Shown: positions 100 through 30,747 of the stretch, piece by piece
How the letters are laid out: each line of letters starts with the position of its first letter
Position numbering within the stretch: the first letter of the stretch is position 1
Source of the DNA: a virus
Reading direction: 5' to 3' (one strand)
IMG/VR virus record: IMGVR_UViG_3300006147_000378
Location: 1 to 64,000 of that record
DNA: 64,000 nt
Notes under the pieces: generated by a model
What the model saw: only the letters and a program-made list of their open reading frames with translations
The model's database searches: none
Told to the model about the DNA's origin: nothing
Program-made: the position numbers and the translations under genes

Positions 100-219
100 C
101 ATGGGAGAATGGCGGAATTGGTTAGACGCGGGAGCCTTTTGAGCTTCTGGAGAGTCGCGCCCTCCATGCTGGTTCGAGCCCAGCTTCTCCCGCCAGCCCA
201 ATATAAGAGAGGTGTTTTT

Positions 220-1816: not shown

Positions 1817-2752
1817 ATGAGTAAACCGATTAAAATGACACCCGAGTATCTGGAACAGTGCCGCTTGGAATTTGAAAAGGCGCTGTCTACCAGCAAGATG
1901 GCCGACGGCAAGATTACTTTCACGAAGGTGTTTACCACGGACGCCCGTAAGGCCACGGTTCACCTTTCGGCGTTGGCGTGGAATAAGATGACCGCCTTGC
2001 TTAGCGGGTTCGACAAGGAGGTCGCATGGCACGGCGTCGCTTTTCGTGGTGATGACGAGAGCAAGGACGAGTACATCATTGAGGATATCGTGGTGTACCC
2101 GCAGGAGGTTACCGGTGCCACCGTCGAGATGGACACAGAGAAGTACGCTCTGTGGTTAATGGAGAACGATGAGGACGAGCGGTTCCAAAACCTCAATATG
2201 CAGGGCCACTCTCATGTGAACATGGGGGTTACGCCATCCAGCGTTGACCTCACCCATCAGGAGGAAATCCTCAATATGTTGGGCGACGATGACTTCTACA
2301 TTTTTATGATTTGGAACAAGTCGCTCACCAGCAACACTAAAATCTACGACATGAAAAAGAATATCCTGTTTGAGAACGCCGATGTGTCTGTAACCTACGA
2401 ACCCGATGACATCGATGATTTCGTCGATGCGGCCAAGAAGATGGTTACGACCAAGGTAGCTACATACGGCTCTTACAACAAAACGGGCAGCACCGCATAC
2501 AACCCACTGGCGGGTCAGAACACCACGTCCATCACGCCTCCGAAGGATAAGGATAAGGGCAAGAAGGATGGTAAGGGCGGCAAGGATGGGGAGAAACCCC
2601 GAACTAAGATTGGCGCTGGTTGGCAGGGCGTGAGCGGAACCCAAACTTCGCTGTACGATGGTGCCAAGCAGGAGCAGGATAACGAAGACGAAGAGTGGGA
2701 GCGGCTGTACGGCGGCTTCGGCTACGGTTCGAGTGGAGCATGGAGGGGATAA
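1817..2752 (+). CDS. JAB/MPN (JAMM) metalloprotease-domain protein with Lys/Gly-rich C-terminal tail
   Basis: JAMM motif E...HSHVNMGVTPSSVD (HxHx7SxxD) seen in translation; RBS AGGGGAGA. Confidence 0.8.
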   Translation: MSKPIKMTPEYLEQCRLEFEKALSTSKMADGKITFTKVFTTDARKATVHLSALAWNKMTALLSGFDKEVAWHGVAFRGDDESKDEYIIEDIVVYPQEVTGATVEMDTEKYALWLMENDEDERFQNLNMQGHSHVNMGVTPSSVDLTHQEEILNMLGDDDFYIFMIWNKSLTSNTKIYDMKKNILFENADVSVTYEPDDIDDFVDAAKKMVTTKVATYGSYNKTGSTAYNPLAGQNTTSITPPKDKDKGKKDGKGGKDGEKPRTKIGAGWQGVSGTQTSLYDGAKQEQDNEDEEWERLYGGFGYGSSGAWRG

Positions 2753-2753
2753 T

Positions 2754-3425
2754 ATGGATTTGTCAAAAAGCTACGAATACTTCCAGCCTGAGAAGCTGAC
2801 CGACCGAGTTCACATCATTGGGTGTGGTTCGGTCGGCTCAACTGTGGCTGAGAACCTCGCCCGCAGCGGCGTGACCAAGTTCGCACTGTGGGACTTCGAT
2901 ACGGTTGAGCCCCACAATCTGGCCAATCAGATGTTCCGCCAGAAGGACATCGGCAAGCCGAAGGTCGATGCGCTCCTGGATATCCTCTGTGATATCAACG
3001 AGGAGGTCAAGGACGACACCAAGCTCCAGCCGGAAGGCTGGAAGGGTCAGCAGCTCTCCGGCTTTGTGTTCCTGTGTGTGGACAACATTGACCTGCGCCG
3101 GGAGATTGTGACACAGCACATGGACAGCCCTTACATCAAGGCCATGTTCGACTTCCGTACCCGGCTGGAGGACGCCCAGCACTACGCCGCCGATTGGTCT
3201 GACTTCAAGATGAAGAAGGACTTCCTGGCGTCTATGAACTTCTCCCATGACGAGGCCAAGGAGGAGACGCCGGTGTCGGCCTGTAATGTCACCCTGTCCG
3301 TTTGCCCCACCGTCCGCATCGTTTGTGCGTATGGTGTGGCCAACTTCATGAACTTCTGGAATGGCAAACCGCTGAAGAAACTCATCCTGGCTGATGCGTT
3401 CAACTTCATGCTGGACGCCTTCTGA
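2754..3425 (+). CDS. E1-like (ThiF/MoeB/UBA family) adenylyltransferase
   Basis: Rossmann motif IIGCGSVGS, ThiF-like fold signature, start overlaps JAB stop (coupled). Confidence 0.75.
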   Translation: MDLSKSYEYFQPEKLTDRVHIIGCGSVGSTVAENLARSGVTKFALWDFDTVEPHNLANQMFRQKDIGKPKVDALLDILCDINEEVKDDTKLQPEGWKGQQLSGFVFLCVDNIDLRREIVTQHMDSPYIKAMFDFRTRLEDAQHYAADWSDFKMKKDFLASMNFSHDEAKEETPVSACNVTLSVCPTVRIVCAYGVANFMNFWNGKPLKKLILADAFNFMLDAF

Positions 3426-3479: not shown

Positions 3480-4310
3480 ATGTACCGAAGGGAGGTGCGT
3501 GTTACGGACACAACGATTGGCAAGCTGAAAATTGGTACGCCCTTGATTATGGGAAAGTATGGCGTGAATAGAGACAGACCTAAGCCAATTATTTGGTTGA
3601 AGGGTACTCCAAACGGTGATTTTATCACAAAAGATGCCATTGATTACCTGCCGTTCGATGCTAAGGAGCGTGAGAACACAGAGAACAATAACGCTCGAAT
3701 AATGGGGAACAGTAGATACAGCGTCTCCAATCTTCTCCAGTTTCTCAACTGCGCTGAGGAATCGTGGTTCGCGCCCATGCACCAATTCGATGCCCCGCCC
3801 ACCGTTATGAATGTCGATTGGAACCGAGGTCAGTACGACCAGCACTATGGATTCCTCTATTTCTTTGAAGAGTATGAGATTGCCGCATTAGAGCAGGACA
3901 CACGGGTAGTTGATACTGATAATGTGGCGACTTTGGTGCGGCTCCCGTCGATTGCCGACATCCTTAGCCCCGACAGGTTCAAACTCTTTACCAAGAAGGG
4001 CGTTCGCCCGAAGGCGACCGAAGAATTGATTGGGAAACCGGGCGCTGAGTTTTACCTTGGTTCCTATGTTCCATTTTGGGTATCAGATTGGGGCCGTAAC
4101 GGACACGCCGCATTCATCGACAGAGATGGCTCCGTAAAAGTCCAGTGGCCAACGGGAAATTGCGGAGTTCGCCCAGTCTGTACTATCAGCCCTGCTACCG
4201 CCGTAGTTCTTGGCGATGACGGGTTCCACTACATAAAGCCACAAGAAATCAAGCAGAACGTTTGTACTGACGAAGAGCTATACGCTTTCTTAGGTCTGGC
4301 ACAGCCTTAA
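3480..4310 (+). CDS. hypothetical protein (candidate partner/effector of downstream RT)
   Basis: 276-aa ORF, no recognisable domain. Confidence 0.5.
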   Translation: MYRREVRVTDTTIGKLKIGTPLIMGKYGVNRDRPKPIIWLKGTPNGDFITKDAIDYLPFDAKERENTENNNARIMGNSRYSVSNLLQFLNCAEESWFAPMHQFDAPPTVMNVDWNRGQYDQHYGFLYFFEEYEIAALEQDTRVVDTDNVATLVRLPSIADILSPDRFKLFTKKGVRPKATEELIGKPGAEFYLGSYVPFWVSDWGRNGHAAFIDRDGSVKVQWPTGNCGVRPVCTISPATAVVLGDDGFHYIKPQEIKQNVCTDEELYAFLGLAQP

Positions 4311-4348
4311 ATGCGCCAATGAACTGTAACGAATATCCTTTCGGGGAG

Positions 4349-4368
4349 CTTCACGCCAAAGGCTGAAG
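4349..4368 (+). repeat. recurrent stem-loop motif copy 1 (CTTCAcGCC-AAA-GGCTGAAG)
   Basis: one of five covarying copies. Confidence 0.5.
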
Positions 4369-4447
4369 TAACGAATTGTCAGAAAAGTGAGATACCCAGA
4401 GGCGAACGGGCCTGGCGCCCGCAGCAGGCCACCGCACCAGTGGAACT

Positions 4448-4590
4448 GGTCGATGAGCTCGCACTACCATCGGCAACCCGAACAAATGCAATTTCGCCAC
4501 AGAAAATGACACCTTTCAGTGTCATTTTCCACCTGGATTTTCACACTTTTACCGACCTATTCAGACTTGGTCTCATCCGAGAGCTCATCA
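4448..4590 (+). ncRNA. candidate retron-like structured RNA upstream of RT (flanking inverted repeats GATGAGCTC / GAGCTCATC enclosing an 11-bp perfect hairpin at 4502..4529)
   Basis: inverted repeats at 4453-4461 and 4581-4589; hairpin GAAAATGACAC-CTTTCA-GTGTCATTTTC; no credible ORF in 4311-4704. Confidence 0.3.
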
Positions 4591-4704
4591 CATCCCTGAG
4601 CCCAGTCGTCTGTTTCTGTGTAGGTTACAGCTCACACTCTTTTGCAAAGGGGGGTAATCAGGTTGGTATATATCACAGTCAGGCAATCACCCATCTATCA
4701 TCAG

Positions 4705-5799
4705 ATGACACTGGAGGAGTTCCTGTTTCAGAACTTCCAGGCACCTGCGGTTGTGAACGCAAACATGGCGAACACAAAGACATACGAATACGAATATGCA
4801 AGCGAACACTTTACAAGCAGTCTGGACGTTGACAGCCTCATCTACAAGTTGGAGCGGTACAACCAGTCGGTGGCCGCACTGCGGGAGAAAGACCGGCACT
4901 CTCTGTACGACAGCTTCCACATTCCCAAGAAGTCTGGTGGCTTGCGAAAGATTGACGCCCCACGCCCCGAACTGATGGATGCGCTCCGGCGGCTCAAGAC
5001 AATCTTTGAGGAGGACTTTCACGCTCTGTACCATACTGCGGCCTTCGCATATGTGAAAAAGCGCTGCACGGTAGACGCGGTCAAGCGCCATCAGAAGAAC
5101 AACAGTAAGTGGTTCGCCAAGCTCGACCTCCATAACTTCTTCGGCAGCACCACGCTGGACTTTGTGATGACAATGTTTTCCATGGTCTATCCATTCAGCG
5201 AGGTGGTTAAGGTTCCACACGGTCGGCAGGAGTTGAGGAATGCTCTTGAACTTGCCTTTTTGGACGGTGGACTCCCGCAGGGGACACCAATCTCTCCGCT
5301 CATCACAAATGTGATGATGATTCCTGTGGACTTCAAACTCTCCAAGGCGTTCCGAGAGTTCAATAAGCAACGGTACATCTACACTCGGTATGCGGATGAT
5401 TTTATCATCTCGTCCAAGTATGACTTCGATGTCCATACCGTTGAGGATTTGGTTGTCCAAACGCTGAAGGATTTTGGTGCTCCGTTCTCAATCAATAACG
5501 CTAAGACTCGCTACGGCTCATCTGCTGGCCGGAACTGGAATCTTGGTGTTATGTTGAACAAAGACAACGAAATCACGATTGGCAACAAGAAAAAACGGCA
5601 GTTCCAGTCCATGCTGTACAACTACATAACGGATAAAAAGAATGGCGTCGAATGGAGCCGTGAAGACATACAAACTGTGCAGGGGCTCCATAGCTACTAT
5701 CGCATGGTCGAGGAAAAGGCCATTGATGCAATCGTCAGCCATATCAACGACAAGATGAAGGTCGATGTGATGCGCCTCATCAAAGATGATTTAAGGTAA
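4705..5799 (+). CDS. reverse transcriptase, retron-like/defence-RT-like (motifs IPKKSGGLRKI, LDLHNFFGS, LPQGTPISP, YADD, INNAKT)
   Basis: RT motifs 1-7 in order in translation; QGxxxSP (not DGR-type); NAxxH-like AVKRH region. Confidence 0.85.
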   Translation: MTLEEFLFQNFQAPAVVNANMANTKTYEYEYASEHFTSSLDVDSLIYKLERYNQSVAALREKDRHSLYDSFHIPKKSGGLRKIDAPRPELMDALRRLKTIFEEDFHALYHTAAFAYVKKRCTVDAVKRHQKNNSKWFAKLDLHNFFGSTTLDFVMTMFSMVYPFSEVVKVPHGRQELRNALELAFLDGGLPQGTPISPLITNVMMIPVDFKLSKAFREFNKQRYIYTRYADDFIISSKYDFDVHTVEDLVVQTLKDFGAPFSINNAKTRYGSSAGRNWNLGVMLNKDNEITIGNKKKRQFQSMLYNYITDKKNGVEWSREDIQTVQGLHSYYRMVEEKAIDAIVSHINDKMKVDVMRLIKDDLR

Positions 5800-5863
5800 T
5801 AAACAATCCTTGGCAGTTGGAGGTTAAACTGCCATTCCTGTAATGTATAGTCGTTCAACGACG

Positions 5864-5883
5864 CTCTACGCCAAAGGCTGGAG
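5864..5883 (+). repeat. recurrent stem-loop motif copy 2 (CTCTAcGCC-AAA-GGCTGGAG)
   Basis: identical to copy 3, 296 nt apart. Confidence 0.5.
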
Positions 5884-6159
5884 TATCACGAGGGTGGGAA
5901 CTGGAGACACCTGCCAGGCACGCAGCAGGCACTGCGATGCGCCTCCAGAATGAGCCCACCGGAAAGCTTCCGACTCACGAACCCCAGCGAGTCTCCCAAA
6001 CCCATTGTCCCACAATGCAGCAGAAAGTCCATTAGCCTCATACTTAACATTACTGGATGTCTCTTCGGCGACGACCGGTCTTCAGGATACAGGACTTTCC
6101 TATGTAGATTACAGGAAACAAACTTCATTTGCAATGTATAACATTCAGAAATGGATGTG

Positions 6160-6179
6160 CTCTACGCCAAAGGCTGGAG
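6160..6179 (+). repeat. recurrent stem-loop motif copy 3 (CTCTAcGCC-AAA-GGCTGGAG)
   Basis: identical 21-mer to copy 2. Confidence 0.5.
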
Positions 6180-6424
6180 TTTCAACTTGATGAGAAGCAC
6201 ACCCTCCCCCGGAGGAGAAGGCGCCCGAGCTGGCCACGACAGCTACGCAGGTCGGCAGCCGTCATCACCACACACGAGATGTCCACACCCATTGCGAGAC
6301 AATAGCACCCATGGAATTTCTTCCTTCTTCCGGACATCCGATTCATCTCAAGATTCGCATCTTGAGCTGCTTCCGCGCAGCAACCAGGGAGCTACTTCTA
6401 TGCAGATTGCAAATGACGAACTAA

Positions 6425-6513
6425 GGAGAGATACCCAAGCTGGTTAAGGGGCAAGTTTGCTAAACTTGTAGGCCGAAAACGGTGCGTGGGTTCGAGCCCC
6501 ACTCTCTCCGCCA
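6425..6513 (+). tRNA. tRNA-Ser (anticodon GCT), long variable arm, CCA encoded
   Basis: cloverleaf folded by hand: acceptor GGAGAGA/TCTCTCC, anticodon loop TTGCTAA, T-loop TTCGAGC. Confidence 0.8.
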
Positions 6514-6631
6514 GGTATGGAACCATTCAATCATGCGTCAAAGGGGAGCCTTTACAGTATGCTGGTGCCTGCACCGGAAACTGGTTATACGTTGGTTCGG
6601 CGGGACGCCGCTGCATGAGCGTACTTTATAT

Positions 6632-6707
6632 TGGGGTGTAGCCAAGTGGTTAAGGCACGGGACTTTGACTCCCGCATTCGCTGGTTCGAGTCCAGCCACC
6701 CCAGCCA
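6632..6707 (+). tRNA. tRNA-Gln (anticodon TTG), CCA encoded
   Basis: closely resembles E. coli tRNA-Gln incl. 5' U; anticodon loop CTTTGAC. Confidence 0.8.
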
Positions 6708-6818
6708 TGTGCCGTTTTAAGCAAATTGTGTTTGGGTCAGAGAGGGGCTTCGTGTGCGCACCTTGTGGGGCCCCTCGTAAACAAATGTGCGGTAGGGCTT
6801 ACCTCAAGCCCACAATAT

Positions 6819-6894
6819 GCTGACGTAGCTTAACTGGTAGAGCGGGGCTTTCGTAAAGCTCAGGTTCCCGGTTCAACTCCGGGCGTCAGCTCCA
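6819..6894 (+). tRNA. tRNA-Thr (anticodon CGT), CCA encoded
   Basis: acceptor GCTGACG/CGTCAGC, anticodon loop TTCGTAA, T-arm CCCGG/CCGGG. Confidence 0.75.
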
Positions 6895-7031
6895 GTAGGT
6901 TCTGTTGGTCATGCTCACGTTTGTGCGGTTAGCTCATCACTCAACTGCTATCTCTGTGAGAGACACAGCCGGGTGCACACGGAGTCTTACGGGCGCAGAA
7001 TCCGCCGCTACGATGCGTCGCAGCGGTGTAC

Positions 7032-7106
7032 GCTGGTGTAGCTCAATGGTAGAGCCACCCCTTTGTAAGGGGAGGGTTGCGGGTTCGAGCCCTGTCACCA
7101 GCTCCA
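7032..7106 (+). tRNA. tRNA-Thr (anticodon TGT), CCA encoded
   Basis: acceptor GCTGGTG/CACCAGC, anticodon loop TTTGTAA. Confidence 0.7.
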
Positions 7107-7126
7107 CCCTGTATTACAGGGTTTTT
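7107..7126 (+). terminator. small terminator hairpin after tRNA (CCCTGT-ATT-ACAGGG + TTTTT)
   Basis: 6-bp stem and T5. Confidence 0.5.
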
Positions 7127-7286
7127 ACCACGGTGTTGGACGTGTTGTCCAATTCATTTCCTTTCCTTTCTTTGCTCATGTTGTATGCGTGTGCCGCTAA
7201 GCATAATAGGTGATGCTTGCGGTGAAGGTGGTTCGATTCCGCCAGTGGTACACGTCGTAGCAACAAAGAACCGTACCTCCATATAT

Positions 7287-7362
7287 CTGGGTGTAGCTCA
7301 GTTGGCAGAGCGCCTGTTTTGGGAACAGGAGGCCGTGGGTTCGAGACCCGCCACTCAGACCA
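7287..7362 (+). tRNA. tRNA-Pro (anticodon TGG), CCA encoded
   Basis: acceptor CTGGGTG/CACTCAG, anticodon loop TTTGGGA (G37). Confidence 0.75.
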
Positions 7363-7385
7363 CTAACCTGTAGAGGAAGATTGAT

Positions 7386-7874
7386 ATGCTGTTGTATCAT
7401 GGAACGTCCCAAACGTTCAACGAACCATGTTTGAGTAAGTGTAAGCCGCACCGAGATTTCGGTTGCGGCTTTTATCTTGCCCAAAACTACATAGACGCAC
7501 TAACAATGGCAATCAAGAACTCCCGCACAGGGTTCGTCCAATCATATTTTCTGGACGACACAAGCGAATTGAACGTGCTCGAACTCGATGGATATTCCGA
7601 GGAATGGTTACAATTCGTTGTGCAATCAAGGCTTGGGCAAAAATCAAACTTCGATTTGGTGATTGGGAACATGGCAGGCGGAGGCCGGAATCTGAAAAGC
7701 AAGTTCTCAAAGTACCGCAGTTCTGGCACATCGGTCGAAGAAGTGATGGCGGCTATGCGTAATGAGCTGACCAACACCACACTTGGCGTCCAGTATGCGT
7801 TTCTGACGCCGAAAGCAGTATCAAAACTAAAACTATTGGATGTCGAAACGATTGAAGAGGAGGAATTGGCATGA
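7386..7874 (+). CDS. putative ADP-ribosyltransferase-like protein (PARP-like H-Y-E signature: LYHGTS ... GCGFYLAQNY; DUF3990-like)
   Basis: HGT...GFYLA motif in translation. Confidence 0.5.
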   Translation: MLLYHGTSQTFNEPCLSKCKPHRDFGCGFYLAQNYIDALTMAIKNSRTGFVQSYFLDDTSELNVLELDGYSEEWLQFVVQSRLGQKSNFDLVIGNMAGGGRNLKSKFSKYRSSGTSVEEVMAAMRNELTNTTLGVQYAFLTPKAVSKLKLLDVETIEEEELA

Positions 7875-8428
7875 CCAGAGATGAATTTATCAATGGGGTC
7901 GATACCTGGTACGATTTGAGGGAGTTCTGCGACGAGCACGGCTGCTCGATTTGCGAGGACATCATCGATGATGACGACCGTGATGACGAAATCGACAGCG
8001 ATGTCGAGGATGCTATCCGCAACGACCGTTGGTACGACATCAAGGGCTACCTGGAAGACATTCCAACAGGTTACAGCTACTATCGGCGTGACGGCAGGTT
8101 TGACTATGTGGGCATGGATGACAATGACTTCGAGGAATACAAGTCCGATGTCCTTGAGTGGGCTGACAATGAAGGCGATATCTGGGAGACAGACCCAGAG
8201 GACGAAGATGAGGACTATGATGTCTTCGAGGCGGAGCTTGAGGCCGATGCCGCCGCTTCCGCTGCTGCCGCCGAGGAAGAGCCTGGCCCCGAAGCCGAGG
8301 ATTTCTCTGTCGGCGACCTGATGGGTATGTGCTGCGTTGCCTTCGTCACAATCAAGGAGGCCGATGCTCAGCGTGTCCAGGAAGAAGAGCAGAATCTTCA
8401 GCAGCTCTATCCGAAGGTCTTAAAGTAA
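7871..8428 (+). CDS. highly acidic protein (D/E-rich; candidate DNA-mimic anti-restriction protein)
   Basis: composition seen directly; runs of D/E. Confidence 0.55.
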   Translation: MTRDEFINGVDTWYDLREFCDEHGCSICEDIIDDDDRDDEIDSDVEDAIRNDRWYDIKGYLEDIPTGYSYYRRDGRFDYVGMDDNDFEEYKSDVLEWADNEGDIWETDPEDEDEDYDVFEAELEADAAASAAAAEEEPGPEAEDFSVGDLMGMCCVAFVTIKEADAQRVQEEEQNLQQLYPKVLK

Positions 8429-8513
8429 GGTCACAACGCATTTGCGTTTTGATAAGCAGTACCCGTGTAGATTGACTGCACTTACATAGCAATAGCGGAA
8501 AATGGTGCAGTAT

Positions 8514-8533
8514 CTTCTCGCCAAAGGCAGAAG
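8514..8533 (+). repeat. recurrent stem-loop motif copy 4 (CTTCTcGCC-AAA-GGCAGAAG)
   Basis: covarying copy. Confidence 0.5.
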
Positions 8534-8576
8534 AATAAACTTGGGTTCTTCGCTTTTTGAGTTCGCAATCCGACCA

Positions 8577-8610
8577 AACTAAATCATTTTCGGCGAAAAT
8601 GATTTAGTTA
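8577..8610 (+). promoter_or_regulatory. perfect 15-bp stem hairpin (AACTAAATCATTTTC-GGCG-GAAAATGATTTAGTT) in leader of NAD operon; no U tract
   Basis: inverted repeat seen directly. Confidence 0.5.
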
Positions 8611-8720
8611 GGCGGATTACTTCACCAAAAAGCGTCGCTCAGTGCACACGCCTCGCTGTCCTGTTATAAGCTTCGGCGTGCAGACGGGTATTTACGATGA
8701 TTTGGGAACGGAGGTGGCAC

Positions 8721-8873
8721 ATGACTGAGAAGAATAAGAAAAAGCAAAATGCGAAAAAGATACACAATTTTTGGACGTGTGCCCGCCCCGTTACCCAGAT
8801 TGTCCCCAACAAAAAAGCATATAACCGTAAGCGAAACAAAGATAACATCAACAAAGGGAGAGACAGCTCATGA
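8721..8873 (+). CDS. small basic peptide (50 aa, K-rich), stop overlaps nicotinamidase start (ATGA)
   Basis: strong RBS GGAGGTG 6 nt upstream of ATG; translational coupling. Confidence 0.35.
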   Translation: MTEKNKKKQNAKKIHNFWTCARPVTQIVPNKKAYNRKRNKDNINKGRDSS

Positions 8874-9421
8874 AATGTCTGGTTGTAGTAGATATGCAGA
8901 ACGATTTCATTGACGGTTCGCTGGGAACGGCGGAAGCCAAGGCCATCGTTGAGAATGTTGTTCAGAAAATCAACGGCTTTGACGGTCTGATTGCGGTCAC
9001 GCAGGACACGCATCCGGCCAACTACCTTAAAACTCAGGAGGGGCACCTGCTTCCCGTCGAGCACTGCATCGAGGGAACTGATGGCTGGAAGCTGAACCCG
9101 GCGGTATATGATGCCATTGATAAGCGGCATGATTCCGGCACACCTGTCGAGTCGTTCTTCAAACCCACCTTCGGTTCTGTGCGGCTCAGTGAGTGGCTGG
9201 CAAACAAGGACTGCGGCGACCCCGTGGAGGAGGTTGTGCTGATTGGTCTCTGTACCGACATCTGTGTCGTTTCCAATGCCCTGCTGGTTAAGGCCGTTCT
9301 GCCGGAGGCCAAGGTTACGGTAGACGCCGCCTGTTGTGCTGGTGTAACGCCGGAGAGCCACGCTGCCGCACTCAAGACCATGCAGATGTGCCAGGTGAAC
9401 GTTGAGAACTGGGAGGGATAA
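8870..9421 (+). CDS. isochorismatase-family hydrolase, nicotinamidase (PncA)-like
   Basis: MKCLVVVDMQNDF... and catalytic Cys region LIGLCTDICV. Confidence 0.75.
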   Translation: MKCLVVVDMQNDFIDGSLGTAEAKAIVENVVQKINGFDGLIAVTQDTHPANYLKTQEGHLLPVEHCIEGTDGWKLNPAVYDAIDKRHDSGTPVESFFKPTFGSVRLSEWLANKDCGDPVEEVVLIGLCTDICVVSNALLVKAVLPEAKVTVDAACCAGVTPESHAAALKTMQMCQVNVENWEG

Positions 9422-9424
9422 AAG

Positions 9425-10231
9425 ATGATTTTGGTAAACGGAAAGCCTTTGACACCCACCCAGTTTCCCGACAACACATCATCCTTCCGCTTCGATGTAA
9501 ACGAGAGTGTCAACAACCTGGAATGGGAGCGGTATGAAATTGAATGGCGCTATGACAGCGATACCGAGTGCATCCTGCTGTGGTATCTGGTGAATCATAT
9601 CCGCTCTGTTGCGGGCTGTGACGCCATCATTTACCTCTACCTGCCCTATATTCCCAACGCCAGAATGGACAGAGTGAAGAACGAGGATGAGGTGTTCACA
9701 CTGAAATGGTTTGCCAACTTCATCAACGAGCTTTGCTTCGAGCGGGTCGTTGTGCTTGACCCGCACTCCAACGTGGCGACGGCACTCATCAACAATGTGC
9801 TTGTCAATCAGCCGGATGGACTCATCCAAGAGGCAATCGACGCCATCGGCGCAGATGACCTCCTGCTTTGCTACCCGGACGAGGGTGCTGCCAAGCGATA
9901 TTCCGAGCTGATGAAGGCCGAGTATATCTTTGGCATCAAACACCGGGATTGGCGTTCTGGCAAGATTGAACGGTTGGAGTTGACCACACCTGAGAAGGTG
10001 GCGGGTCATACAGTCCTGATTGTGGATGATATCTGCTCCCGTGGCGGCACATTCACGCATACGGCCACCGCATTGAGGGAGGCCGGGGCCAAGGCGATTT
10101 ACCTGTATGTCACGCACTGTGAGAGCACCATCTTCAAGGGTTCTGTGTTGACGGATGGTATGATTCAGCACGTTTTTACAACCAACAGCATCTATCGTGG
10201 CGAGCACGAGATGGTGACTGTGTTAGAGTAA
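9425..10231 (+). CDS. ribose-phosphate pyrophosphokinase (Prs)-like PRTase-fold protein; possibly the ADPR-pyrophosphate synthetase of an NAD+ reconstitution pathway
   Basis: PRTase motif VLIVDDICSRGGT; Prs-like PYxxxARxDR and DLH blocks. Confidence 0.75.
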   Translation: MILVNGKPLTPTQFPDNTSSFRFDVNESVNNLEWERYEIEWRYDSDTECILLWYLVNHIRSVAGCDAIIYLYLPYIPNARMDRVKNEDEVFTLKWFANFINELCFERVVVLDPHSNVATALINNVLVNQPDGLIQEAIDAIGADDLLLCYPDEGAAKRYSELMKAEYIFGIKHRDWRSGKIERLELTTPEKVAGHTVLIVDDICSRGGTFTHTATALREAGAKAIYLYVTHCESTIFKGSVLTDGMIQHVFTTNSIYRGEHEMVTVLE

Positions 10232-10250
10232 CTGCGGAGGAGGGTGTATT

Positions 10251-10865
10251 ATGTCCGCAAATTTCGATGCAAGCAAAATGTATACATATCTCAAAGGGTA
10301 TGCAATGGGATTGGAGTGGCATGATACACTCGAAGCCCTTTCGTTTGCCAGGGTCGCACATAAAGACCAACGCCGCAAAAGCGGCGAACCGTATATTGTC
10401 CATCCTTTGACGGTTGCAAGCCATGCGGTGGCACTTGGAATTAAGGAGGATACAATCGTTGCGGCAGCAATTCTTCACGATGTTGTTGAGGATTGCGGTG
10501 TCAAAGCGGAGAATCTTCCTGTTTCTATGGACACGAGAGATGCGGTTCGCAGGCTCACGCATATCAAGGGCGAGCCTCTCGGCCCGTATTACCGTGAAAT
10601 TGGAGAGAACAGGGCCGCATCTATTGTAAAATTGTTGGATAGATGCGATAATGTATCTACCATGGCGGGCGTTTTTTCAGTAGAAAAGGTCGCACAGTAC
10701 ATCGGTGAAACGCGGCAGTTTGTTCTTCCGCTGTTGCGGGAGACAAAAGACAAGTGGCCAAATGACTCGAACGCACTCTTCGTGTTGAAATATCACATTA
10801 TGTCGGTTATTGATGGCCTTGAGGTCTGCCTGCAAGTAAAGAATGAGGTGGGTACAAATGCTTGA
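10251..10865 (+). CDS. HD-domain hydrolase of RelA/SpoT (p)ppGpp-hydrolase type (small alarmone hydrolase-like)
   Basis: HPLTVASHAVALG...AAILHDVVED HD motif. Confidence 0.7.
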   Translation: MSANFDASKMYTYLKGYAMGLEWHDTLEALSFARVAHKDQRRKSGEPYIVHPLTVASHAVALGIKEDTIVAAAILHDVVEDCGVKAENLPVSMDTRDAVRRLTHIKGEPLGPYYREIGENRAASIVKLLDRCDNVSTMAGVFSVEKVAQYIGETRQFVLPLLRETKDKWPNDSNALFVLKYHIMSVIDGLEVCLQVKNEVGTNA

Positions 10866-12063
10866 ACTCCAAGGAAAATTCGCAACCGCAAAAGTTTTCA
10901 CTGATGTGGTTGATAACGAATCCATTTCGCAGGTCATCAATCTCCTGAACCAGCCATATGCGGAAGGTGCCCATGTCCGCATGATGCCCGACATCCACGC
11001 TGGGGCAGGATGTACCATTGGCACTACCATGACTATTAAGGACAAGATTTGCCCGAACCTTGTGGGTGTGGACATCGGTTGTGGTATGGAGACAATCAAA
11101 ATCAAGGAAGACCACATCGAGCCGCAGAAACTGGATACCGTCATCCGTGATGGCATCCCTTCCGGGTTTTCTATCCGGGATAAGGCTCATCGGTTCTCCT
11201 CCGAGATTGACTTGGCCGAGCTGTATTGTGCCAAGCAGGTCAACATTGACCGTGCGCTGTGTAGCATTGGGACTTTGGGCGGCGGCAACCATTTCATCGA
11301 AGCGGACAAGGATGATGATGGTAACATCTATATCGTCGTCCACTCCGGCAGTCGGCATCTGGGGCTACAGATTGCCAACTACTATCAGGAGGCCGCATAC
11401 AAAGCACTCACCAGTTACAGCCAGGAGGAAATCGATGCTGTTATTACCCAACTCAAAGCAGAGGGGCGGCAAAAGGAAATCCAAAAGGCTTTGAAGCAGC
11501 TCAAGTCGAAGCATAGCCCGGTTCCGAAGCCGCTGGCCTATGTTGAGGGAGAGCTGTTTGACCAGTATATCCACGACATGAAGATTGCCCAGCAGTATGC
11601 TGAACTCAACCGCCGGGCAATGATGGATGTGATTGTGAAGGGCATGGGTTTCCATGTTGTCGAGCAGTTTACCACCATCCACAACTACATTGATGTGGAC
11701 AACATGATTCTTCGGAAGGGTGCTGTGTCCGCTCGGGCTGGGGAACGTCTGCTCATCCCCATCAACATGAGAGATGGTAGCCTGATTTGCACCGGCAAAG
11801 GGAACGAGGACTGGAACTGTTCTGCGCCCCATGGCGCTGGACGCCTGATGAGCCGGAGCGCTGCAAAGGAGACCTTCACAGTTTCCGAGTTTAAGAAGCA
11901 GATGGACGGTATCTATACCACATCTGTTGGCCGCAGCACTCTTGATGAGTGCCCGATGGCCTACAAGAACATGGCCGATATCGTGGACAACATCGACCCG
12001 ACGGCGGAGATTAACGCAATCATCAAGCCAATCTACAATTTCAAAGCAGGTGATGACGAATGA
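10858..12063 (+). CDS. rtcB: RNA 3'-phosphate/2',3'-cyclic phosphate ligase RtcB
   Basis: MPDIHAGAGCTIG and GGGNHFIE motifs. Confidence 0.85.
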   Translation: MLELQGKFATAKVFTDVVDNESISQVINLLNQPYAEGAHVRMMPDIHAGAGCTIGTTMTIKDKICPNLVGVDIGCGMETIKIKEDHIEPQKLDTVIRDGIPSGFSIRDKAHRFSSEIDLAELYCAKQVNIDRALCSIGTLGGGNHFIEADKDDDGNIYIVVHSGSRHLGLQIANYYQEAAYKALTSYSQEEIDAVITQLKAEGRQKEIQKALKQLKSKHSPVPKPLAYVEGELFDQYIHDMKIAQQYAELNRRAMMDVIVKGMGFHVVEQFTTIHNYIDVDNMILRKGAVSARAGERLLIPINMRDGSLICTGKGNEDWNCSAPHGAGRLMSRSAAKETFTVSEFKKQMDGIYTTSVGRSTLDECPMAYKNMADIVDNIDPTAEINAIIKPIYNFKAGDDE

Positions 12064-12168
12064 GTGGCTTCGACTGGCGGGGCTATTTAATGTTCTGTGC
12101 ATACATCTGTTTCCTTATTGGCTATACCATCTTCGTCGGCAAACAATTAACAAAGAGGTGGAAGTAAC

Positions 12169-13656
12169 ATGATTCACTACAATCCTTTGCTCTGCCTGGA
12201 TTTCTACAAGACGGCCCACGCAGAGCAGTATCCGCAGACTTTGACCAAGATGGTCTCCTACTATACACCACGCATGACTCGGCTTGGCGATACCGACAAG
12301 GTGACGATGTTCGGTCTCCAGGCATTCATCAAGGAATATCTCAGAGACTCATTTGACATCTGTTTCTTCCAAGAGGACTGGGAGGATGTTTTGGATGACT
12401 ACAAGCGTGTTCTCAACGCTACCATCAACACCGATGGCGTCGGTGTCCAGCGGCTGAAAGCTCTGCACGACCTCGGCTATCTGCCTTTGGAGATTAGGGC
12501 TGTGCCGGAAGGTGTTCGCACTAATATCAAAGTACCGCAAATCGAAATCTCCAATACCCACCCGGATTTCGTGTGGCTGGTCAACTCCATCGAGACCATG
12601 CTTTCCTGCACTATGTGGCACACCCAGGTTTCCGCTGAGGTGGGTTATCGCTACCGTCAAATCGTCAATGAGTACGCCGAGCGCACCTGTGATGACAGTG
12701 TGGTTCGGGCACGGCTCCTTGGCGATTTTTCTATGCGCGGTCAGGAGAGTGTAGAGAGCGCCACCAAGAGCTCCGCCGCTTTCTGCCTCAGTTTCCTGAA
12801 CACGGCCACCGTACCCGCTATTCTTTGGCTGGAGGATAACTACGACTGCGACTGTGTGCATGAGCCAGTTGCATATGGTGCTCTGTCCACCGAACACAGC
12901 GTTATGTGCTCCAACTTTGCCATTGATGGCGATGAGATTACCCATATTCGCCGTCTGCTGACTGAAATCTATCCACACCAGAGCTTCTCTATGGTCAGCG
13001 ACAGTTATGACTACTGGAATCTGGTGGACAATATCCTGCCGCAACTCAAGGATGAGATTCTGGCGCATGACGGGTGCATCTCCATCCGTGGCGACAGCGG
13101 TGACCCGGTTCAGGTTGTGACCGAGACCGTGTTCCGCCTGTGGGATATCTTTGGCGGCACTGTGAACAGTAAGGGGTTCAAGGTTTTGGACTCTCATGTC
13201 AAGGCGCTGTATGGCGACAGCATCACGCCGCAGCGTTGCCAGCAGGTCTATCAGATTCTGGAGGACAATGGGTTTGCTATCAACAACGTGGCGCTGGGTG
13301 TCGGTTCCTTCTCTATGCAATGTCTTGAGACAATGGACGCTGAACAGAAGTCCTATGCTCCATATACCCGTGATACCTTCGGTATCGCCGTGAAGGCAAC
13401 CTATGCAGAGGACGCTGACGGCAAACCCATCATGATTTTCAAGAACCCCAAAACCGACACCGGCCATTTTAAGAAATCCCAGCGTGGCTGTTGCCGTGTG
13501 GTCAAGGACGGCGACAACTACACATATGAGGATGGCCTGACTTGGGCCGAGGCTCAGGAGAACAATGAGCTTCAGACCGTGTTCAAGAATGGTGATATCA
13601 TCAAGAGGTTTACGCTGGATGAAGTGCGTCAGAACCTCCATGGAGGCCAGTTCTGA
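12169..13656 (+). CDS. nicotinamide phosphoribosyltransferase (NAMPT/NadV)-family protein; possibly a nicotinamide ADPR-transferase
   Basis: N-terminal LCLDFYKTAHAEQYP typical of NAMPT family; ~495 aa. Confidence 0.8.
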   Translation: MIHYNPLLCLDFYKTAHAEQYPQTLTKMVSYYTPRMTRLGDTDKVTMFGLQAFIKEYLRDSFDICFFQEDWEDVLDDYKRVLNATINTDGVGVQRLKALHDLGYLPLEIRAVPEGVRTNIKVPQIEISNTHPDFVWLVNSIETMLSCTMWHTQVSAEVGYRYRQIVNEYAERTCDDSVVRARLLGDFSMRGQESVESATKSSAAFCLSFLNTATVPAILWLEDNYDCDCVHEPVAYGALSTEHSVMCSNFAIDGDEITHIRRLLTEIYPHQSFSMVSDSYDYWNLVDNILPQLKDEILAHDGCISIRGDSGDPVQVVTETVFRLWDIFGGTVNSKGFKVLDSHVKALYGDSITPQRCQQVYQILEDNGFAINNVALGVGSFSMQCLETMDAEQKSYAPYTRDTFGIAVKATYAEDADGKPIMIFKNPKTDTGHFKKSQRGCCRVVKDGDNYTYEDGLTWAEAQENNELQTVFKNGDIIKRFTLDEVRQNLHGGQF

Positions 13657-18104: not shown

Positions 18105-19187
18105 ATGCGCCAGTTAGCAAGTATCAGGAAGATTTCTGATATCCGCCCCATCCCCGGCGCCGACCGCATTGTGGTTGCGCAGGTTGATGGATGGGAGTGT
18201 GTTGTTCAAAAGGACGAGTTCCATGTGGGCGACACCATCGTCTATGTCGAGGTGGACTCTATTGTCCCAGAGCGCCCAGAGTTCGAGTTCCTGCGTGACC
18301 GTAAGTTCCGTGTGCGCACCATCAAGCTGCGTGGGCAGGTCAGTCAGGGCCTGGTTTTGCCGATGTCTATCCTGCCGGATGGCATCTATCCGCTTGGCAG
18401 CGATGTGACGAAGGTTCTCGGAATTGAGAAGTATGACCCCGAAGCACAGCAGGAGGCCATGCTTACCCAGAAGCAGCCGAACAAGCCCAAGAGCAAGTTT
18501 GCCCAGTTCATGATGCGGTTCAAGTGGTATCGCAAGCTGTTCATGAAGTCGAAGCGCAAGGGCGGGTTCCCAGAGTGGATTGTCAAGACGGACGAGACCC
18601 GTATCCAGAACCTGACCACCCTCTTTGATATTGAGCGGAGGAACGGCACCAAGTTCTCCGTCACTGAGAAGGTGGACGGTCAGTCTGCGACCTACTATCT
18701 CAGAAAGGTCTCCCGGCGCAAGTATGAGTTCGGGGTTTGCAGTCGAAACATTCACCTGGGTACTCCTGACAACAGCTCCTATTGGACTGTGGCAAAGAAG
18801 TACGACATCGAGAACGTGCTGAAGAAGCTCATCGGTGATTATGAAACTATCGTTTTACAAGGTGAAATCTGTGGTAACCAGATTCAGGGGAACAAGTATC
18901 ACATCAGTGGTTATGAGCTTTTCGCCTTCAACCTGATTTACCCAGGGCACAAGTGCGGCACTGCCGAAATCAAAGACCTGCTCTCCCCGTTTGGAATCAA
19001 AACGGTTCCAATCCTTGAGGAAGGCAAGGTTTTACCGGACACTATCGCAGATTTGGTAGAGTATTCCAAAGGTAAATCGATAGTTCGGAAAGAACAGAAG
19101 CGGGAGGGTGTTGTGATGCGCAACGTTCAGAAGAACATCAGCTTCAAGGTCATCAACCCAGACTTCCTGCTCGCAGAAAAGGACTGA
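18105..19187 (+). CDS. ATP-dependent RNA ligase-family nucleotidyltransferase (motif I KVDGQS) with N-terminal OB-like domain
   Basis: KVDG motif I; family assignment RNA vs DNA ligase is inference from context. Confidence 0.6.
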   Translation: MRQLASIRKISDIRPIPGADRIVVAQVDGWECVVQKDEFHVGDTIVYVEVDSIVPERPEFEFLRDRKFRVRTIKLRGQVSQGLVLPMSILPDGIYPLGSDVTKVLGIEKYDPEAQQEAMLTQKQPNKPKSKFAQFMMRFKWYRKLFMKSKRKGGFPEWIVKTDETRIQNLTTLFDIERRNGTKFSVTEKVDGQSATYYLRKVSRRKYEFGVCSRNIHLGTPDNSSYWTVAKKYDIENVLKKLIGDYETIVLQGEICGNQIQGNKYHISGYELFAFNLIYPGHKCGTAEIKDLLSPFGIKTVPILEEGKVLPDTIADLVEYSKGKSIVRKEQKREGVVMRNVQKNISFKVINPDFLLAEKD

Positions 19188-26559: not shown

Positions 26560-26698
26560 GGTAGCGTAGCTTAATTGGTTAGAGCTGCGGGCGCAAAGCG
26601 TCGAGGAGTGACTCTCCTTCTTGGAAGGTACAGCCAAGACCCGTGTAAGTGGAGTGTTTCGTCAACATCCCGTGTAGGTTCGAGTCCTACCGCTACCA
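26560..26698 (+). tRNA. tRNA-like gene with ~64-nt internal insertion (intact acceptor/D-arm and T-arm/acceptor ends; anticodon unresolved)
   Basis: 5' GGTAGCG-TA-GCTT...GAGC and 3' GTAGG-TTCGAGT-CCTAC-CGCTACC-A; internal 8-nt direct repeat CCCGTGTA. Confidence 0.4.
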
Positions 26699-29616: not shown

Positions 29617-29928
29617 GGCTTCACATGGATTGTCCATTCAAACAGCAGCTCGCAGAGGGTTCAATGGTTTGTGACTATGGTGGGATTCGTCACGAGCCAG
29701 GCATAGAACAATGCCCGACCGAAATCTTTAACCGGTGCCAAAGCGATGACATAGACCAAGCATAGGCGATGTACTGTCGTTAATACATACAGATGCTCCA
29801 CAAAAACATAAACTTTGATATTGTGTAACATGAAAGGGCTGCATCCGTGCGGCCCTTTCTGTACATATACGCCCAAATTTGGCCAGTCGCCTTGAAGATT
29901 TGCCGTGGTACATACAACTCCATAGCAG

Positions 29929-29948
29929 CTTTTCGCCAAAGGCAGAAG
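29929..29948 (+). repeat. recurrent stem-loop motif copy 5 (CTTTTcGCC-AAA-GGCAGAAG)
   Basis: covarying copy. Confidence 0.5.
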
Positions 29949-29982
29949 TAAAAATTCGGAACTACGCTCTCCGAGTCCAGCA

Positions 29983-30010
29983 GCCCGCTAACGCGGGCAA
30001 GACTTTTTTT
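29983..30010 (+). terminator. Rho-independent terminator (GCCCGC-TAAC-GCGGGC + spacer + T7)
   Basis: 6-bp GC stem and T7 run. Confidence 0.55.
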
Positions 30011-30154
30011 CTCACTCGCATTGCTGAGGCAATGCTTCGTGAGTGCTGGGCTCGGGAGCGACGCTATGCACATCGGCGGCTCACTCAACCTACAGCCGCT
30101 TCGATGCGGAAGGCGACTGGCCTGTTTGTATAAAAATTTCTGGAGGTGTATAAT

Positions 30155-30418
30155 GTGGGAAGAATAATTCGCAGTATTCGGGTCGGGCAAAGAGCGAGCT
30201 TTGAAAAGGCGAGAAAAAACTTTGGTGACCTGGCAAAAATCGAGGATGCCGAGATTTACTGGGGTAACGGTACAATCGCAGTTGTCGCCTCCAAGGAGTG
30301 GTGTGATTATTTGGGCGGGATAACGGATGTGCGCCCAGAACCGCAGGGCGATGACACCACATTCGAGTTCGATGAACAAGAGTTCATGCGATTTATTGGG
30401 CAGGAGGTGCGGACATGA
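30155..30418 (+). CDS. hypothetical protein (DUF2442-like?)
   Basis: GTG start 6 nt after GGAGGTG. Confidence 0.4.
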   Translation: MGRIIRSIRVGQRASFEKARKNFGDLAKIEDAEIYWGNGTIAVVASKEWCDYLGGITDVRPEPQGDDTTFEFDEQEFMRFIGQEVRT

Positions 30419-30747
30419 ACAGAGCAGAGAGACGCCATCCGCCAAAGGCTGGGCAAGTCCGCCAAATCCTGGACGACCTGAACAAAATAGAGAAAATCAA
30501 ACAGGCCATGAATGACAGTTGGCCGTTCCGGCCTGGGGACAAGGTGATGCTCAACATGGATGCCATCACCAGCAGAAAGGGATATGACCAGAAACTCCCC
30601 GCATATAAAGCGTTCTGTGAGAGCAATACGGGCCAGGTCTTCACGGTTGAGTATGTCGAGGGTATGCACCCCAGCGTGGTATGCCTTGCCGAGGATGAGT
30701 CAACACCCAAGTGGCTGTTCTGGGTTGGAGACTTAAAGGCGGTATAA
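30415..30747 (+). CDS. hypothetical protein
   Basis: RBS CAGGAGG. Confidence 0.5.
   Translation: MNRAERRHPPKAGQVRQILDDLNKIEKIKQAMNDSWPFRPGDKVMLNMDAITSRKGYDQKLPAYKAFCESNTGQVFTVEYVEGMHPSVVCLAEDESTPKWLFWVGDLKAV

Follow-up and report, generated by a model that had tools for sequence, protein, structure and literature searches.

Hairpins repeated in a gut-phage genome belong to a family of retron-like RNAs tied to a divergent retron-type reverse transcriptase

Retrons are understood as bacterial anti-phage systems that are made up of one reverse transcriptase (RT), one non-coding RNA (ncRNA), plus an effector. Here we describe a phage locus that is like them in some respects and unlike them in others. 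It lies in a stretch of viral DNA of 64,000 nucleotides (nt), positions 1 to 64,000 of IMG/VR record IMGVR_UViG_3300006147_000378, which is referred to as the window below. A preliminary description, made by a model from the letters of the window, had pointed to five intergenic copies of a short hairpin with a bulged C. We found that this hairpin is the visible part of a conserved family of retron-like RNAs of ~300 nt, which occur several per genome and are tied to a divergent retron-type RT.

Another described arrangement of an RT with structured RNAs is that of UG27, a class-2 UG/Abi RT that is common in gut phages (PMC9226505, Mestre et al. 2022). UG27 loci contain tandem arrays of ~150-nt (135–167 nt) ncRNA units, each of which gives rise to a complementary DNA (cDNA) hairpin of 50–100 nt (10.64898/2026.09.22.753630). 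This cDNA synthesis needs the RT, whose catalytic motif is YSDD, and two accessory proteins without known domains, and the units carry AUC-N7-UANAG and UUYA motifs (10.64898/2026.09.22.753630). The accessory proteins are sORF and bORF (clusters 337 and 346).

In the window, the core 10-mer of the hairpin, CGCCAAAGGC, occurs six times on the + strand, compared with 0.16 occurrences expected from dinucleotide shuffles, and none of 100 shuffles reaches six. Five of the six copies are flanked by a fully complementary base of 5 base pairs (bp) around a one-base bulge. These are the five hairpins of the preliminary description, and all of them are found on the + strand exactly where it had placed them (4349–4368, 5864–5883, 6160–6179, 8514–8533, and 29929–29948). 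Its count is right for stemmed copies, with the sixth core match at 30440–30449 overlooked. Because this match lies inside an open reading frame (ORF; 30415–30747), has no complementary flanks and scores 8.9 bits with the covariance model described below, it is most likely a chance occurrence.

Among the five copies, the basal stem is changed on both sides at two positions and contains two G·T wobbles. The variation with retained pairing, G–U pairs included, that had been noticed in the preliminary description is therefore seen in the window, where five-copy covariation by itself is modest, thin evidence and suggestive at most. It becomes overwhelming once relatives are added.

Relatives were collected by a degenerate 20-mer scan of IMG/VR, which returned 34 loci, nearly all on human-gut viral contigs of 60–130 kb. 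Two of the 34 loci have three copies with the same spacing as window copies 1–3. When the flanks of the motif loci were aligned, the hairpin appeared as part of a larger module that starts with an upstream box (TGYAAYG-nAU) and continues with a paired hairpin of variable sequence (P1), a linker of 1–2 nt, the reported hairpin (P2), and a UAnCAAnUUG box. Two loci, L001 and L024, were rejected as chance matches, for they contain the 20-mer and none of the flanking features.

A covariance model of 63 positions, R1, was then built from 17 hand-checked modules, as the preliminary description had suggested, and used for the search of relatives; the module was recovered in >100 related gut-phage contigs. 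In the window, with filters off, R1 finds only the five known copies. Elsewhere it matches 92 modules in 44 diverse sources and 76 modules in 35 distant RT loci, all of them on the RT strand. In an alignment of the 92 units, which was fitted to R1 and is hence biased toward the structure, standard pairs make up 98.6% of the pair cells of P1 and P2, 11 of the 13 pairs are changed on both sides, and none of 500 column shuffles reaches the observed score. When the 3′ partners are slid as a control, pairing falls to 36–49%. P2 alone is 99.6% paired in these units, with double changes at six of its eight pairs; only the two bottom pairs (C-G and U-A) never vary. An independent MAFFT seed alignment gives the same picture, with 96.9% pairing and double changes at 9 of 14 pairs.

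In form, P2 is a stem of 5 bp, a single bulged base, 3 bp more and a triloop. The bulged C, the GCC/GGC apex and the AAA loop had been described as invariant, and they are so in the close clade (RT identity of at least ~71%). In distant relatives, on the other hand, all of them vary: the apex becomes GCU-GUC-AGC, ACU-GUA-AGU, AUU-GUA-AAU, GCG-UUY-CGC or GGU-AUU-ACC, the bulge is C, U or A, and GUN or the like takes the place of the AAA loop. Because G·U pairs are frequent, and would be A·C mismatches on the opposite strand, the P2 fold forms only on the + strand, that is, in the transcript. The strong covariation bears out the earlier conclusion of a selected structure on this strand. It is very likely that the hairpin is a structured RNA element of an RT-associated ncRNA family.

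Each hairpin copy in the window is located 18–48 nt inside a non-coding unit of 235–307 nt, and the five units are called E1–E5 (Table 1). From 5′ to 3′, a unit consists of an a1 arm, a G, P1, P2, a TAACAAnTTG box, a variable GC-rich body of 150–250 nt, a ..UAUGUAG motif, and an a2 arm. In a search for complementarity between the sequence upstream of P2 and the 500 nt downstream, a1 and a2 were found to form a closing helix of 7–13 bp in all window copies and in nearly all relatives. The helix partner of the upstream box is located 215–380 nt away, and the units are 214–379 nt long, with a median of 298 nt. The arm sequences vary across units and orthologues with complementarity kept. The best a1/a2 helix abutting the conserved G has a mean length of 9.9 bp, compared with 5.9 bp in shuffled downstream sequence (91 units from 44 sources), and it is longer than the maximum of 20 shuffles in 65 of these 91 units. 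Given 23 full-length units and no structure to start from, RNAalifold recovers the closing helix (11 pairs, 8 with double changes) as well as P1 and P2.

The junctions of the closing helix are also conserved. All 89 aligned units have a G directly 3′ of a1, and so do the five units of the window. At the other end, a G is immediately 5′ of a2 in 69 of 72 units, preceded at −2 by an A in 61 of 72, both within the ..UAUGUAG motif. Single-sequence folds of the five window units agree with the closed-unit layout, and those of E4 and E5 have a long central hairpin, the E5 fold reaching −117 kcal/mol. The 296-nt structured segment that had been described as bracketed by copies 2 and 3 was accurately seen, and it is composed of the whole of E2 (5835–6117) and the 5′ part of E3.

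E4 and E5 are of a second type, type B, which starts with a1-G-WAGAUUG and has a larger P1. Type-B orthologues were found in four phages (L038, L039, L059, and L099) with covarying closing helices and the same G-WAGAUUG start. The bodies of the 23 full-length units are too variable for alignment. In a blastn-short search of the window with the five units, meant to find what the variable bodies might target, the shared P2 and 11–14-mers expected by chance were all that matched, and the bodies have no significant match or complement elsewhere in it. In Rfam searches, only tRNAs exceeded the gathering thresholds over the whole window, and nothing credible was found in 4250–8900 at E values up to 5.

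The RT gene is located between E1 and E2. Each of the 25 PADLOC matches listed for its product is to a retron RT model, and the top one is to RT_II-A (1.1e-45; 154 bits; positions 25–297 of 304 in the profile). Among NCBIfam models, retron_St85_RT scores 174.8 bits, group II intron RT 86.8 bits, and Drt2 43 bits, the last over the catalytic core only. The best sequence matches in PDB are the RTs of retrons Ec83, Ec78, and Ec67, and no retron type is clearly preferred. AVKRH, NLG and YADD motifs are conserved across 19 aligned members of the RT family. Judged by its sequence, the RT is a divergent member of the retron RT clade.

Homologues of this RT at 43–80% identity were found on 70 viral contigs, on 28 contigs of metagenome-assembled genomes (MAGs), and on one GenBank faecal-virome contig. 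On these contigs, the module occurs ~400–480 nt upstream of the RT start, right after the RT stop, ~300 nt beyond, and sometimes kilobases away, and the placement of units around the RT is kept in relatives down to 43–46% RT identity. The RT is within the fetched DNA at 29 of the 32 genuine motif loci. There are 2–5 units per relative within flanks of 6–8 kb, and five in the window, where E4 and E5 are 2.7 and 24 kb away from the RT. E1 followed by the RT is the canonical retron gene order (msr-msd-ret).

The relatives are large gut phages with contigs of ~100–135 kb. Matching MAG contigs carry inconsistent taxon labels (Clostridiales, Prevotella, Alistipes, and even ‘archaeon’) and are probably mis-binned phage contigs. 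A DNA search of a phage collection for cultured close relatives matched tRNA genes only, and the best protein match of the RT in the same collection, at 43% identity, is on an unannotated human faecal contig. Two matches of lower identity, L134 and L135, were set aside: they are retron RTs of the canonical kind, with NAKIH/NANPH and VTG/ITG, and do not come with the RNA module.

Not all parts of the units diverge alike. The ratio of divergence within genomes to that between genomes is 1.10 for a1, 1.08 for P1, and 0.84 for the box after P2. Within P2, it is 0.62 for the upper basal pairs and 0.38 for the bulge and apex. An identical P2 apex is shared by 44% of within-genome unit pairs, compared with 4% of between-genome pairs. 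Because a1 and P1 are as diverged within as between genomes, the units of one genome are old paralogues rather than recent copies. A P2 apex that is alike within a genome and shifts between genomes is what would be predicted for recognition by a co-evolving trans-acting factor encoded there.

The RT is the obvious candidate for this partner. In bacterial retrons, the RT reportedly recognises an msr stem-loop in a specific manner, according to work of the Inouye laboratory and structures of Ec86. Recognition by a phage RNA-binding protein had been among the roles considered in the preliminary description, which had also noted the adjacent RT, and it comes close to our best reading; the antitermination role named with it is not supported. 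The other roles proposed there, by which the hairpin would be free-standing punctuation (an RNase processing site, an antitermination element or a transcription-unit boundary), do not fit a hairpin that sits at a fixed place inside a closed, RT-linked unit.

E1–E5 are best read as retron-like ncRNA genes, in which the five hairpins would be the second stem-loop (P2) of an msr-like 5′ domain. This msr-msd reading is based on the layout a1-G-(P1,P2)-variable body-AG-a2 beside a retron-clade RT. It is probable, in our judgement, that several retron-like template RNAs share one phage RT and that P2 is the hairpin on which the RT docks. We infer that the units are transcribed and that the RT binds P2, whose apex is common to the units of one phage and different between phages. 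Docking on P2 would place the a1/a2 duplex and the flanking G in the RT active site. The RT would prime from the 2′-OH of the G after a1 and copy the RNA upstream of a2 into single-stranded DNA (ssDNA). One enzyme would in this way make several different products that resemble multicopy single-stranded DNA (msDNA). The proposed mechanism is directly testable.

Several observations weigh against this retron-like reading. The retron_St85_RT score of the RT is below the curated NCBIfam cutoff of 235 bits. The retron signatures NAxxH and VTG, which are NAKIH and VTG in the Ec83 RT, are replaced by AVKRH and NLG with H and G kept. No recognisable retron effector gene or domain was found next to the RT in profile scans of the neighbouring genes. 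The bodies of E1–E3 fold as several shorter helices instead of one dominant long hairpin of the msd type, unlike those of E4 and E5. Multiple template RNAs per RT, some of them kilobases away, are unlike the arrangement known from retrons. In some genomes (for example, L067 and L069), the units do not all have exactly the same P2 apex. Furthermore, the relatives all come from a single phage lineage, in which gene order is conserved, so the linkage between RT and units could partly reflect shared descent rather than function.

We put forward tentatively a broader picture, which we consider slightly less likely than not. An entire family of large phages from human and animal guts may carry a divergent retron, in which one RT would use three to five or more dispersed, anciently diverged templates by way of one common docking hairpin, which co-evolves. 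It would then be the phage, rather than the bacterium, that makes a set of different msDNA-like ssDNAs, possibly as counter-defence decoys or regulators next to its tRNA-repair and NAD-salvage genes, and the system would be a second invention of the ‘phage RT plus many templates’ kind, independent of UG27. A counter-defence or regulatory role of the products is plausible because many window genes are of the counter-defence type, and it is purely speculative. A literature search for phage-encoded retrons or retrons with several ncRNAs, with poor coverage of subscription papers, found no relevant description.

Alternatively, the units could be RT-associated ncRNAs with a protein-binding P2 in a system whose chemistry is not retron-like. 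The cDNA would then be primed by a protein or a 3′-OH, as in UG/Abi class-2 systems (DRT2, DRT9, and UG27), or the RNAs would scaffold or regulate the RT without being copied. A precedent exists in the gut-phage RT UG27, whose arrays of ncRNA units, conserved in structure and diverse in sequence, template short cDNA hairpins (10.64898/2026.09.22.753630; PMC9226505), and the many units per RT are nearer to UG27 than to retrons. The missing canonical NAxxH/VTG and the score under the retron cutoff would also suit such chemistry. The full-length RT, however, matches retron RTs best rather than UG or DRT models, and has YADD where UG27 has YSDD. The units are dispersed and 215–380 nt long, whereas UG27 units are tandem and ~150 nt, and the UG27 motif AUC-N7-UANAG occurs in only 4 of the 92 units and at random positions. 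Moreover, the a1-G ... AG-a2 junction has the geometry of retron priming. We therefore regard non-retron chemistry as unlikely. Membership in UG27 itself was rejected, because the unit motif is absent and the catalytic motif differs, as judged against published descriptions of UG27; a distant relationship may still exist.

It is less likely still, and on the whole improbable, that P2 is read by another phage or host factor, such as an endoribonuclease that processes a co-transcribed array of units and tRNAs, or the 517-aa, JAB-like or ThiF/E1-like protein encoded upstream. Processing must occur somewhere, because E2, E3, and the five tRNAs are packed with gaps of 7–9 nt (7 nt from E2 to E3 and 8 nt from E3 to the tRNA-Ser at 6425; E2 itself starts 35 nt after the RT stop). 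P2 is, however, 18–48 nt inside the closing helix rather than at a unit boundary, and E4 and E5 carry P2 without neighbouring tRNAs. The genome-specific constraint on P2 demands a partner encoded in the same genome, not the RT in particular, and four genes that form a block directly upstream of E1 and the RT keep their synteny with it in nearly every relative, at RT identities as low as 46%. Yet the RT is the only adjacent protein known to need a specific RNA partner, and L115 and L123 retain the RT and the units while the block is absent or out of place. The genes of this block in the window encode a ~517-aa protein without assigned function (250–1803), a weakly JAB-like protein (1676–2752), a ThiF/E1-like adenylyltransferase (2658–3425), and a 276-aa protein that is variable and has a Hoc-like Ig region (3480–4310). 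The pair of ThiF/E1-like and JAB-like proteins may act together with the RT or may simply be a conserved neighbour.

HK022 put consists of two adjacent stem-loops, and the promoters of the N4 virion RNA polymerase have a stem of 5–7 bp and a 3-nt loop. Even though P1 and P2 are 1–2 nt apart as if in put RNA, the stem and triloop recall the N4 promoters, and all P2 copies are co-oriented with the genes, it is very improbable that P2 serves as a signal for transcription (a two-hairpin antiterminator of the put kind, an unconventional terminator or boundary element, or an N4-type ssDNA hairpin promoter), since there is no U-tract, the scan puts neither a terminator nor a promoter at any copy, what comes after E2 is just a further non-coding unit, which leaves nothing to antiterminate into, the closing helix and the G junction would be left unexplained, G·U wobbles do not allow the hairpin on the template strand that N4-type promoters use, and the largest window ORF is a DNA polymerase of 1075 aa, with no giant virion RNA polymerase seen within the window.

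The individual candidates of this kind were rejected as follows. An N4-like promoter is disfavoured by the G·U strand specificity, the lack of a giant polymerase ORF in the window and the position inside a closed unit. Put-like antiterminators or promoter-proximal 5′ hairpins do not accord with the closing helix or with the linkage to the RT, and E2 has no genes downstream of it. An intrinsic terminator, which the preliminary description had already discounted, is contradicted by flanks such as UAACGAAUUG, which have no U-tract, and by a terminator scan that is negative at all copies. Scans for sigma-70 promoters and terminators found nothing enriched or positioned at the hairpin copies.

Table 1. 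Positions of the RT gene and of the putative retron-like units with their parts in the window.
Feature	Positions	Strand	Remarks
E1, putative retron-like ncRNA gene upstream of RT	4324–4630	+	307 nt; R1 model 69.1 bits; helix CTGTAAC/GTTACAG; orthologue helices covary
E1 a1 arm (4324–4330) and invariant G (4331; candidate branching G)	4324–4331	+	G in 89/89 aligned units
E1 variable hairpin P1	4336–4347	+	all P1 pairs covary
E1 conserved hairpin P2 (copy 1)	4349–4368	+	CUUCA-C-GCC-AAA-GGC-UGAAG
E1 a2 arm	4624–4630	+	UGUGUAG directly before
RT gene, retron-clade, catalytic YADD	4768–5799	+	343 aa; Pfam RVT_1 3.9e-20
E2, putative retron-like ncRNA gene right after RT stop	5835–6117	+	283 nt; R1 model 68.4 bits; helix TTCCTGTAAT/ATTACAGGAA
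E2 a1 arm (5835–5844) and invariant G (5845)	5835–5845	+	
E2 variable hairpin P1	5850–5862	+	GUCGU-UCA-ACGAC
E2 conserved hairpin P2 (copy 2)	5864–5883	+	
E2 mid-unit small hairpin	6003–6017	+	CAUUG-UCCCA-CAAUG; conserved in type-A units; seen by inspection of 23 full-length units
E2 a2 arm	6108–6117	+	CUAUGUAG directly before
E3, putative retron-like ncRNA gene	6125–6416	+	292 nt; R1 model 66.5 bits; helix TCATTTGCAAT/ATTGCAAATGA
E3 a1 arm (6125–6135) and invariant G (6136)	6125–6136	+	
E3 variable hairpin P1	6141–6158	+	ACAUUC/GGAUGU
E3 conserved hairpin P2 (copy 3)	6160–6179	+	
E3 a2 arm	6406–6416	+	CUAUGCAG directly before
E4, putative type-B retron-like ncRNA gene, 2.7 kb downstream of RT	8458–8692	+	235 nt; helix AGTACCCGT/ACGGGTATT
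E4 a1 arm (8458–8466) and G (8467)	8458–8467	+	
E4 P1	8475–8511	+	ACUGCAC/GUGCAGU, large loop with UACAUA
E4 conserved hairpin P2 (copy 4)	8514–8533	+	R1 model 24.3 bits, local match
E4 a2 arm	8684–8692	+	GUGCAG directly before
E5, putative type-B retron-like ncRNA gene, 24 kb from RT	29881–30122	+	242 nt; 13-bp helix GGCCAGTCGCCTT/AAGGCGACTGGCC; R1 model 27.8 bits
E5 a1 arm (29881–29893) and G (29894)	29881–29894	+	
E5 conserved hairpin P2 (copy 5)	29929–29948	+	
E5 a2 arm	30110–30122	+	GAUGCGG directly before

Further elements were noticed in and around the units. Type-A units keep a small mid-unit hairpin, CCAUUG-YGCCA-CAAU, amid unalignable A/C-rich sequence (6003–6017 and 6300–6312 in the window; L035–L061 units), which may be a second protein contact or a stop signal for reverse transcription. 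Runs of 10–13 A occur in the variable body of some orthologous units (L040:5533–5868, L059:5536–5868, and L061:1656–1968). The apex of the long hairpin in E5, GCCCGC-UAAC-GCGGGC, is followed by 5 nt and then 7 T (29983–30010, +), an arrangement within the unit like that of an intrinsic terminator. Just upstream of E5, at ~29834–29860, there is a second terminator-like hairpin.

Type-B units also have a conserved motif, GUGUUUUGAUAU, ~2–6 nt upstream of a1 (8443–8456 in the window, where the E4 version is GCGTTTTGATAAG; L038, L048, and L061). It may act as a promoter element of the −10 kind, by which transcription would begin at a1. Another hairpin, UGGCAGU-UGGAGGUUAA-ACUGCCA (5811–5834, +), is found after the RT stop and before E2. 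Its counterpart in the relative L035 is GCCGU...ACGGC with an identical loop, so that the stem appears to covary and the loop to be conserved. Possibly this hairpin is one more RNA element, or it forms the 3′ terminus of the RT mRNA.

As for the genomic setting, the window is the early or replication arm of a large phage genome and holds genes for a DNA polymerase, a DnaB-like helicase and NrdD, together with NAD-salvage genes (a nicotinamidase-like isochorismatase, a PRPP-synthetase-like protein and Nampt) and genes for tRNA or RNA repair (RtcB, an RNA ligase, a nucleotidyltransferase and a CCA-adding enzyme). The NAD-salvage and repair genes belong to a dense set of the counter-defence type (8870–13656, 18105–19187, and 30783–33159), to which the array of five tRNAs at 6425–7362 is counted as well. 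Right after this array, a DUF3990 protein (7386–7874, +) matches the candidate defence families PDC-M13B and PDC-M10A of PADLOC (2.6e-26) and is kept in some relatives. A large serine recombinase or integrase is encoded at 56387–57901 (+; PHROG integrase 3.8e-96), and the phage may be temperate or invertase-bearing; all relatives are free viral or MAG contigs.

Two further tRNA genes are unusual. At 26560–26698 (+) there is a tRNA-like gene of 139 nt (Rfam tRNA, 43.8 bits; no ARAGORN call) with a 47-nt insertion in the anticodon stem or loop and a long extra arm, which may be an intron-containing or otherwise unusual phage tRNA. ARAGORN reports an unusually long tRNA-Lys(UUU) of 93 nt at 103–195 (+). 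Its overlap with the start of the mechanically called ORF 109–1803 makes it probable that the protein actually begins further downstream.

In a widespread lineage of gut phages, a retron-clade RT is conserved together with several template-like RNAs and without a recognisable effector. Should the units be reverse transcribed, the phages themselves would use retron chemistry to make multiple distinct ssDNAs, and the role of these ssDNAs in infection becomes the question. If so, the system would also parallel the UG27 phage systems, which come from another RT lineage, and would suggest convergent evolution. A compact RT that takes several natural templates by way of a short hairpin would be a platform for multiplexed production of ssDNA in cells, and the natural apex variants with their cognate RTs form a ready specificity series for experiments.

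Among known systems, bacterial retrons (Ec86/Eco1, St85/Sen2 of type II-A, and Ec83 and Ec78 of type I-A) share much with the locus. The full-length RT is most similar to retron RTs, and as in retrons the ncRNA is closed by inverted repeats a1/a2, the 5′ one of which is immediately followed by a conserved G. After this G come two hairpins, an msr-like feature that shows strong covariation here; one ncRNA is directly upstream of the RT, and a variable body lies between the msr-like part and a2. Unlike retrons, the system is found in a large phage instead of a bacterial defence island, with 3–5 or more ncRNA genes per RT, some 2.7–24 kb off, and no recognisable effector. NAxxH/VTG has become AVKRH/NLG, and the units are longer than most retron ncRNAs. 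We have filed the system as a retron-like variant, not a standard retron, with putative msDNA production.

DRT2 and DRT9 (UG2 and UG28) are similar in having a structured ncRNA beside the RT gene, which in DRT is both scaffold and template. They differ in that the ncRNA is single, the RT is of another class (the Drt2 model being the one with 43 bits here), the products are of the rolling-circle or homopolymer kind, and the systems serve bacterial defence. HK022 put and the N4 promoters are likewise short conserved hairpins repeated in a phage genome and co-oriented with transcription. There is no sequence relation to them, and the hairpin here is + strand-specific and inside a closed ~300-nt unit linked to an RT, with no giant RNA polymerase gene in the window.

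UG27, finally, is also a phage-borne RT with multiple ncRNA units that are conserved in structure and diverse in sequence, possibly with extra units in neighbouring intergenic regions. It is found in gut phages of Bacteroidota and Bacillota, and the gut-phage setting is common to both systems. UG27 units have been shown to template short cDNAs, whose function is still unassigned, whereas templating is only proposed for the units described here. The retron-like RT with YADD differs from UG27, which is set apart by its published description, and so do the units, which are longer, dispersed, and nearly free of AUC-N7-UANAG. The conserved neighbours here include ThiF/E1-like and JAB-like proteins with known domains, unlike the accessory proteins of UG27. 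With these differences, UG27 is the nearest functional analogue in the literature searched.

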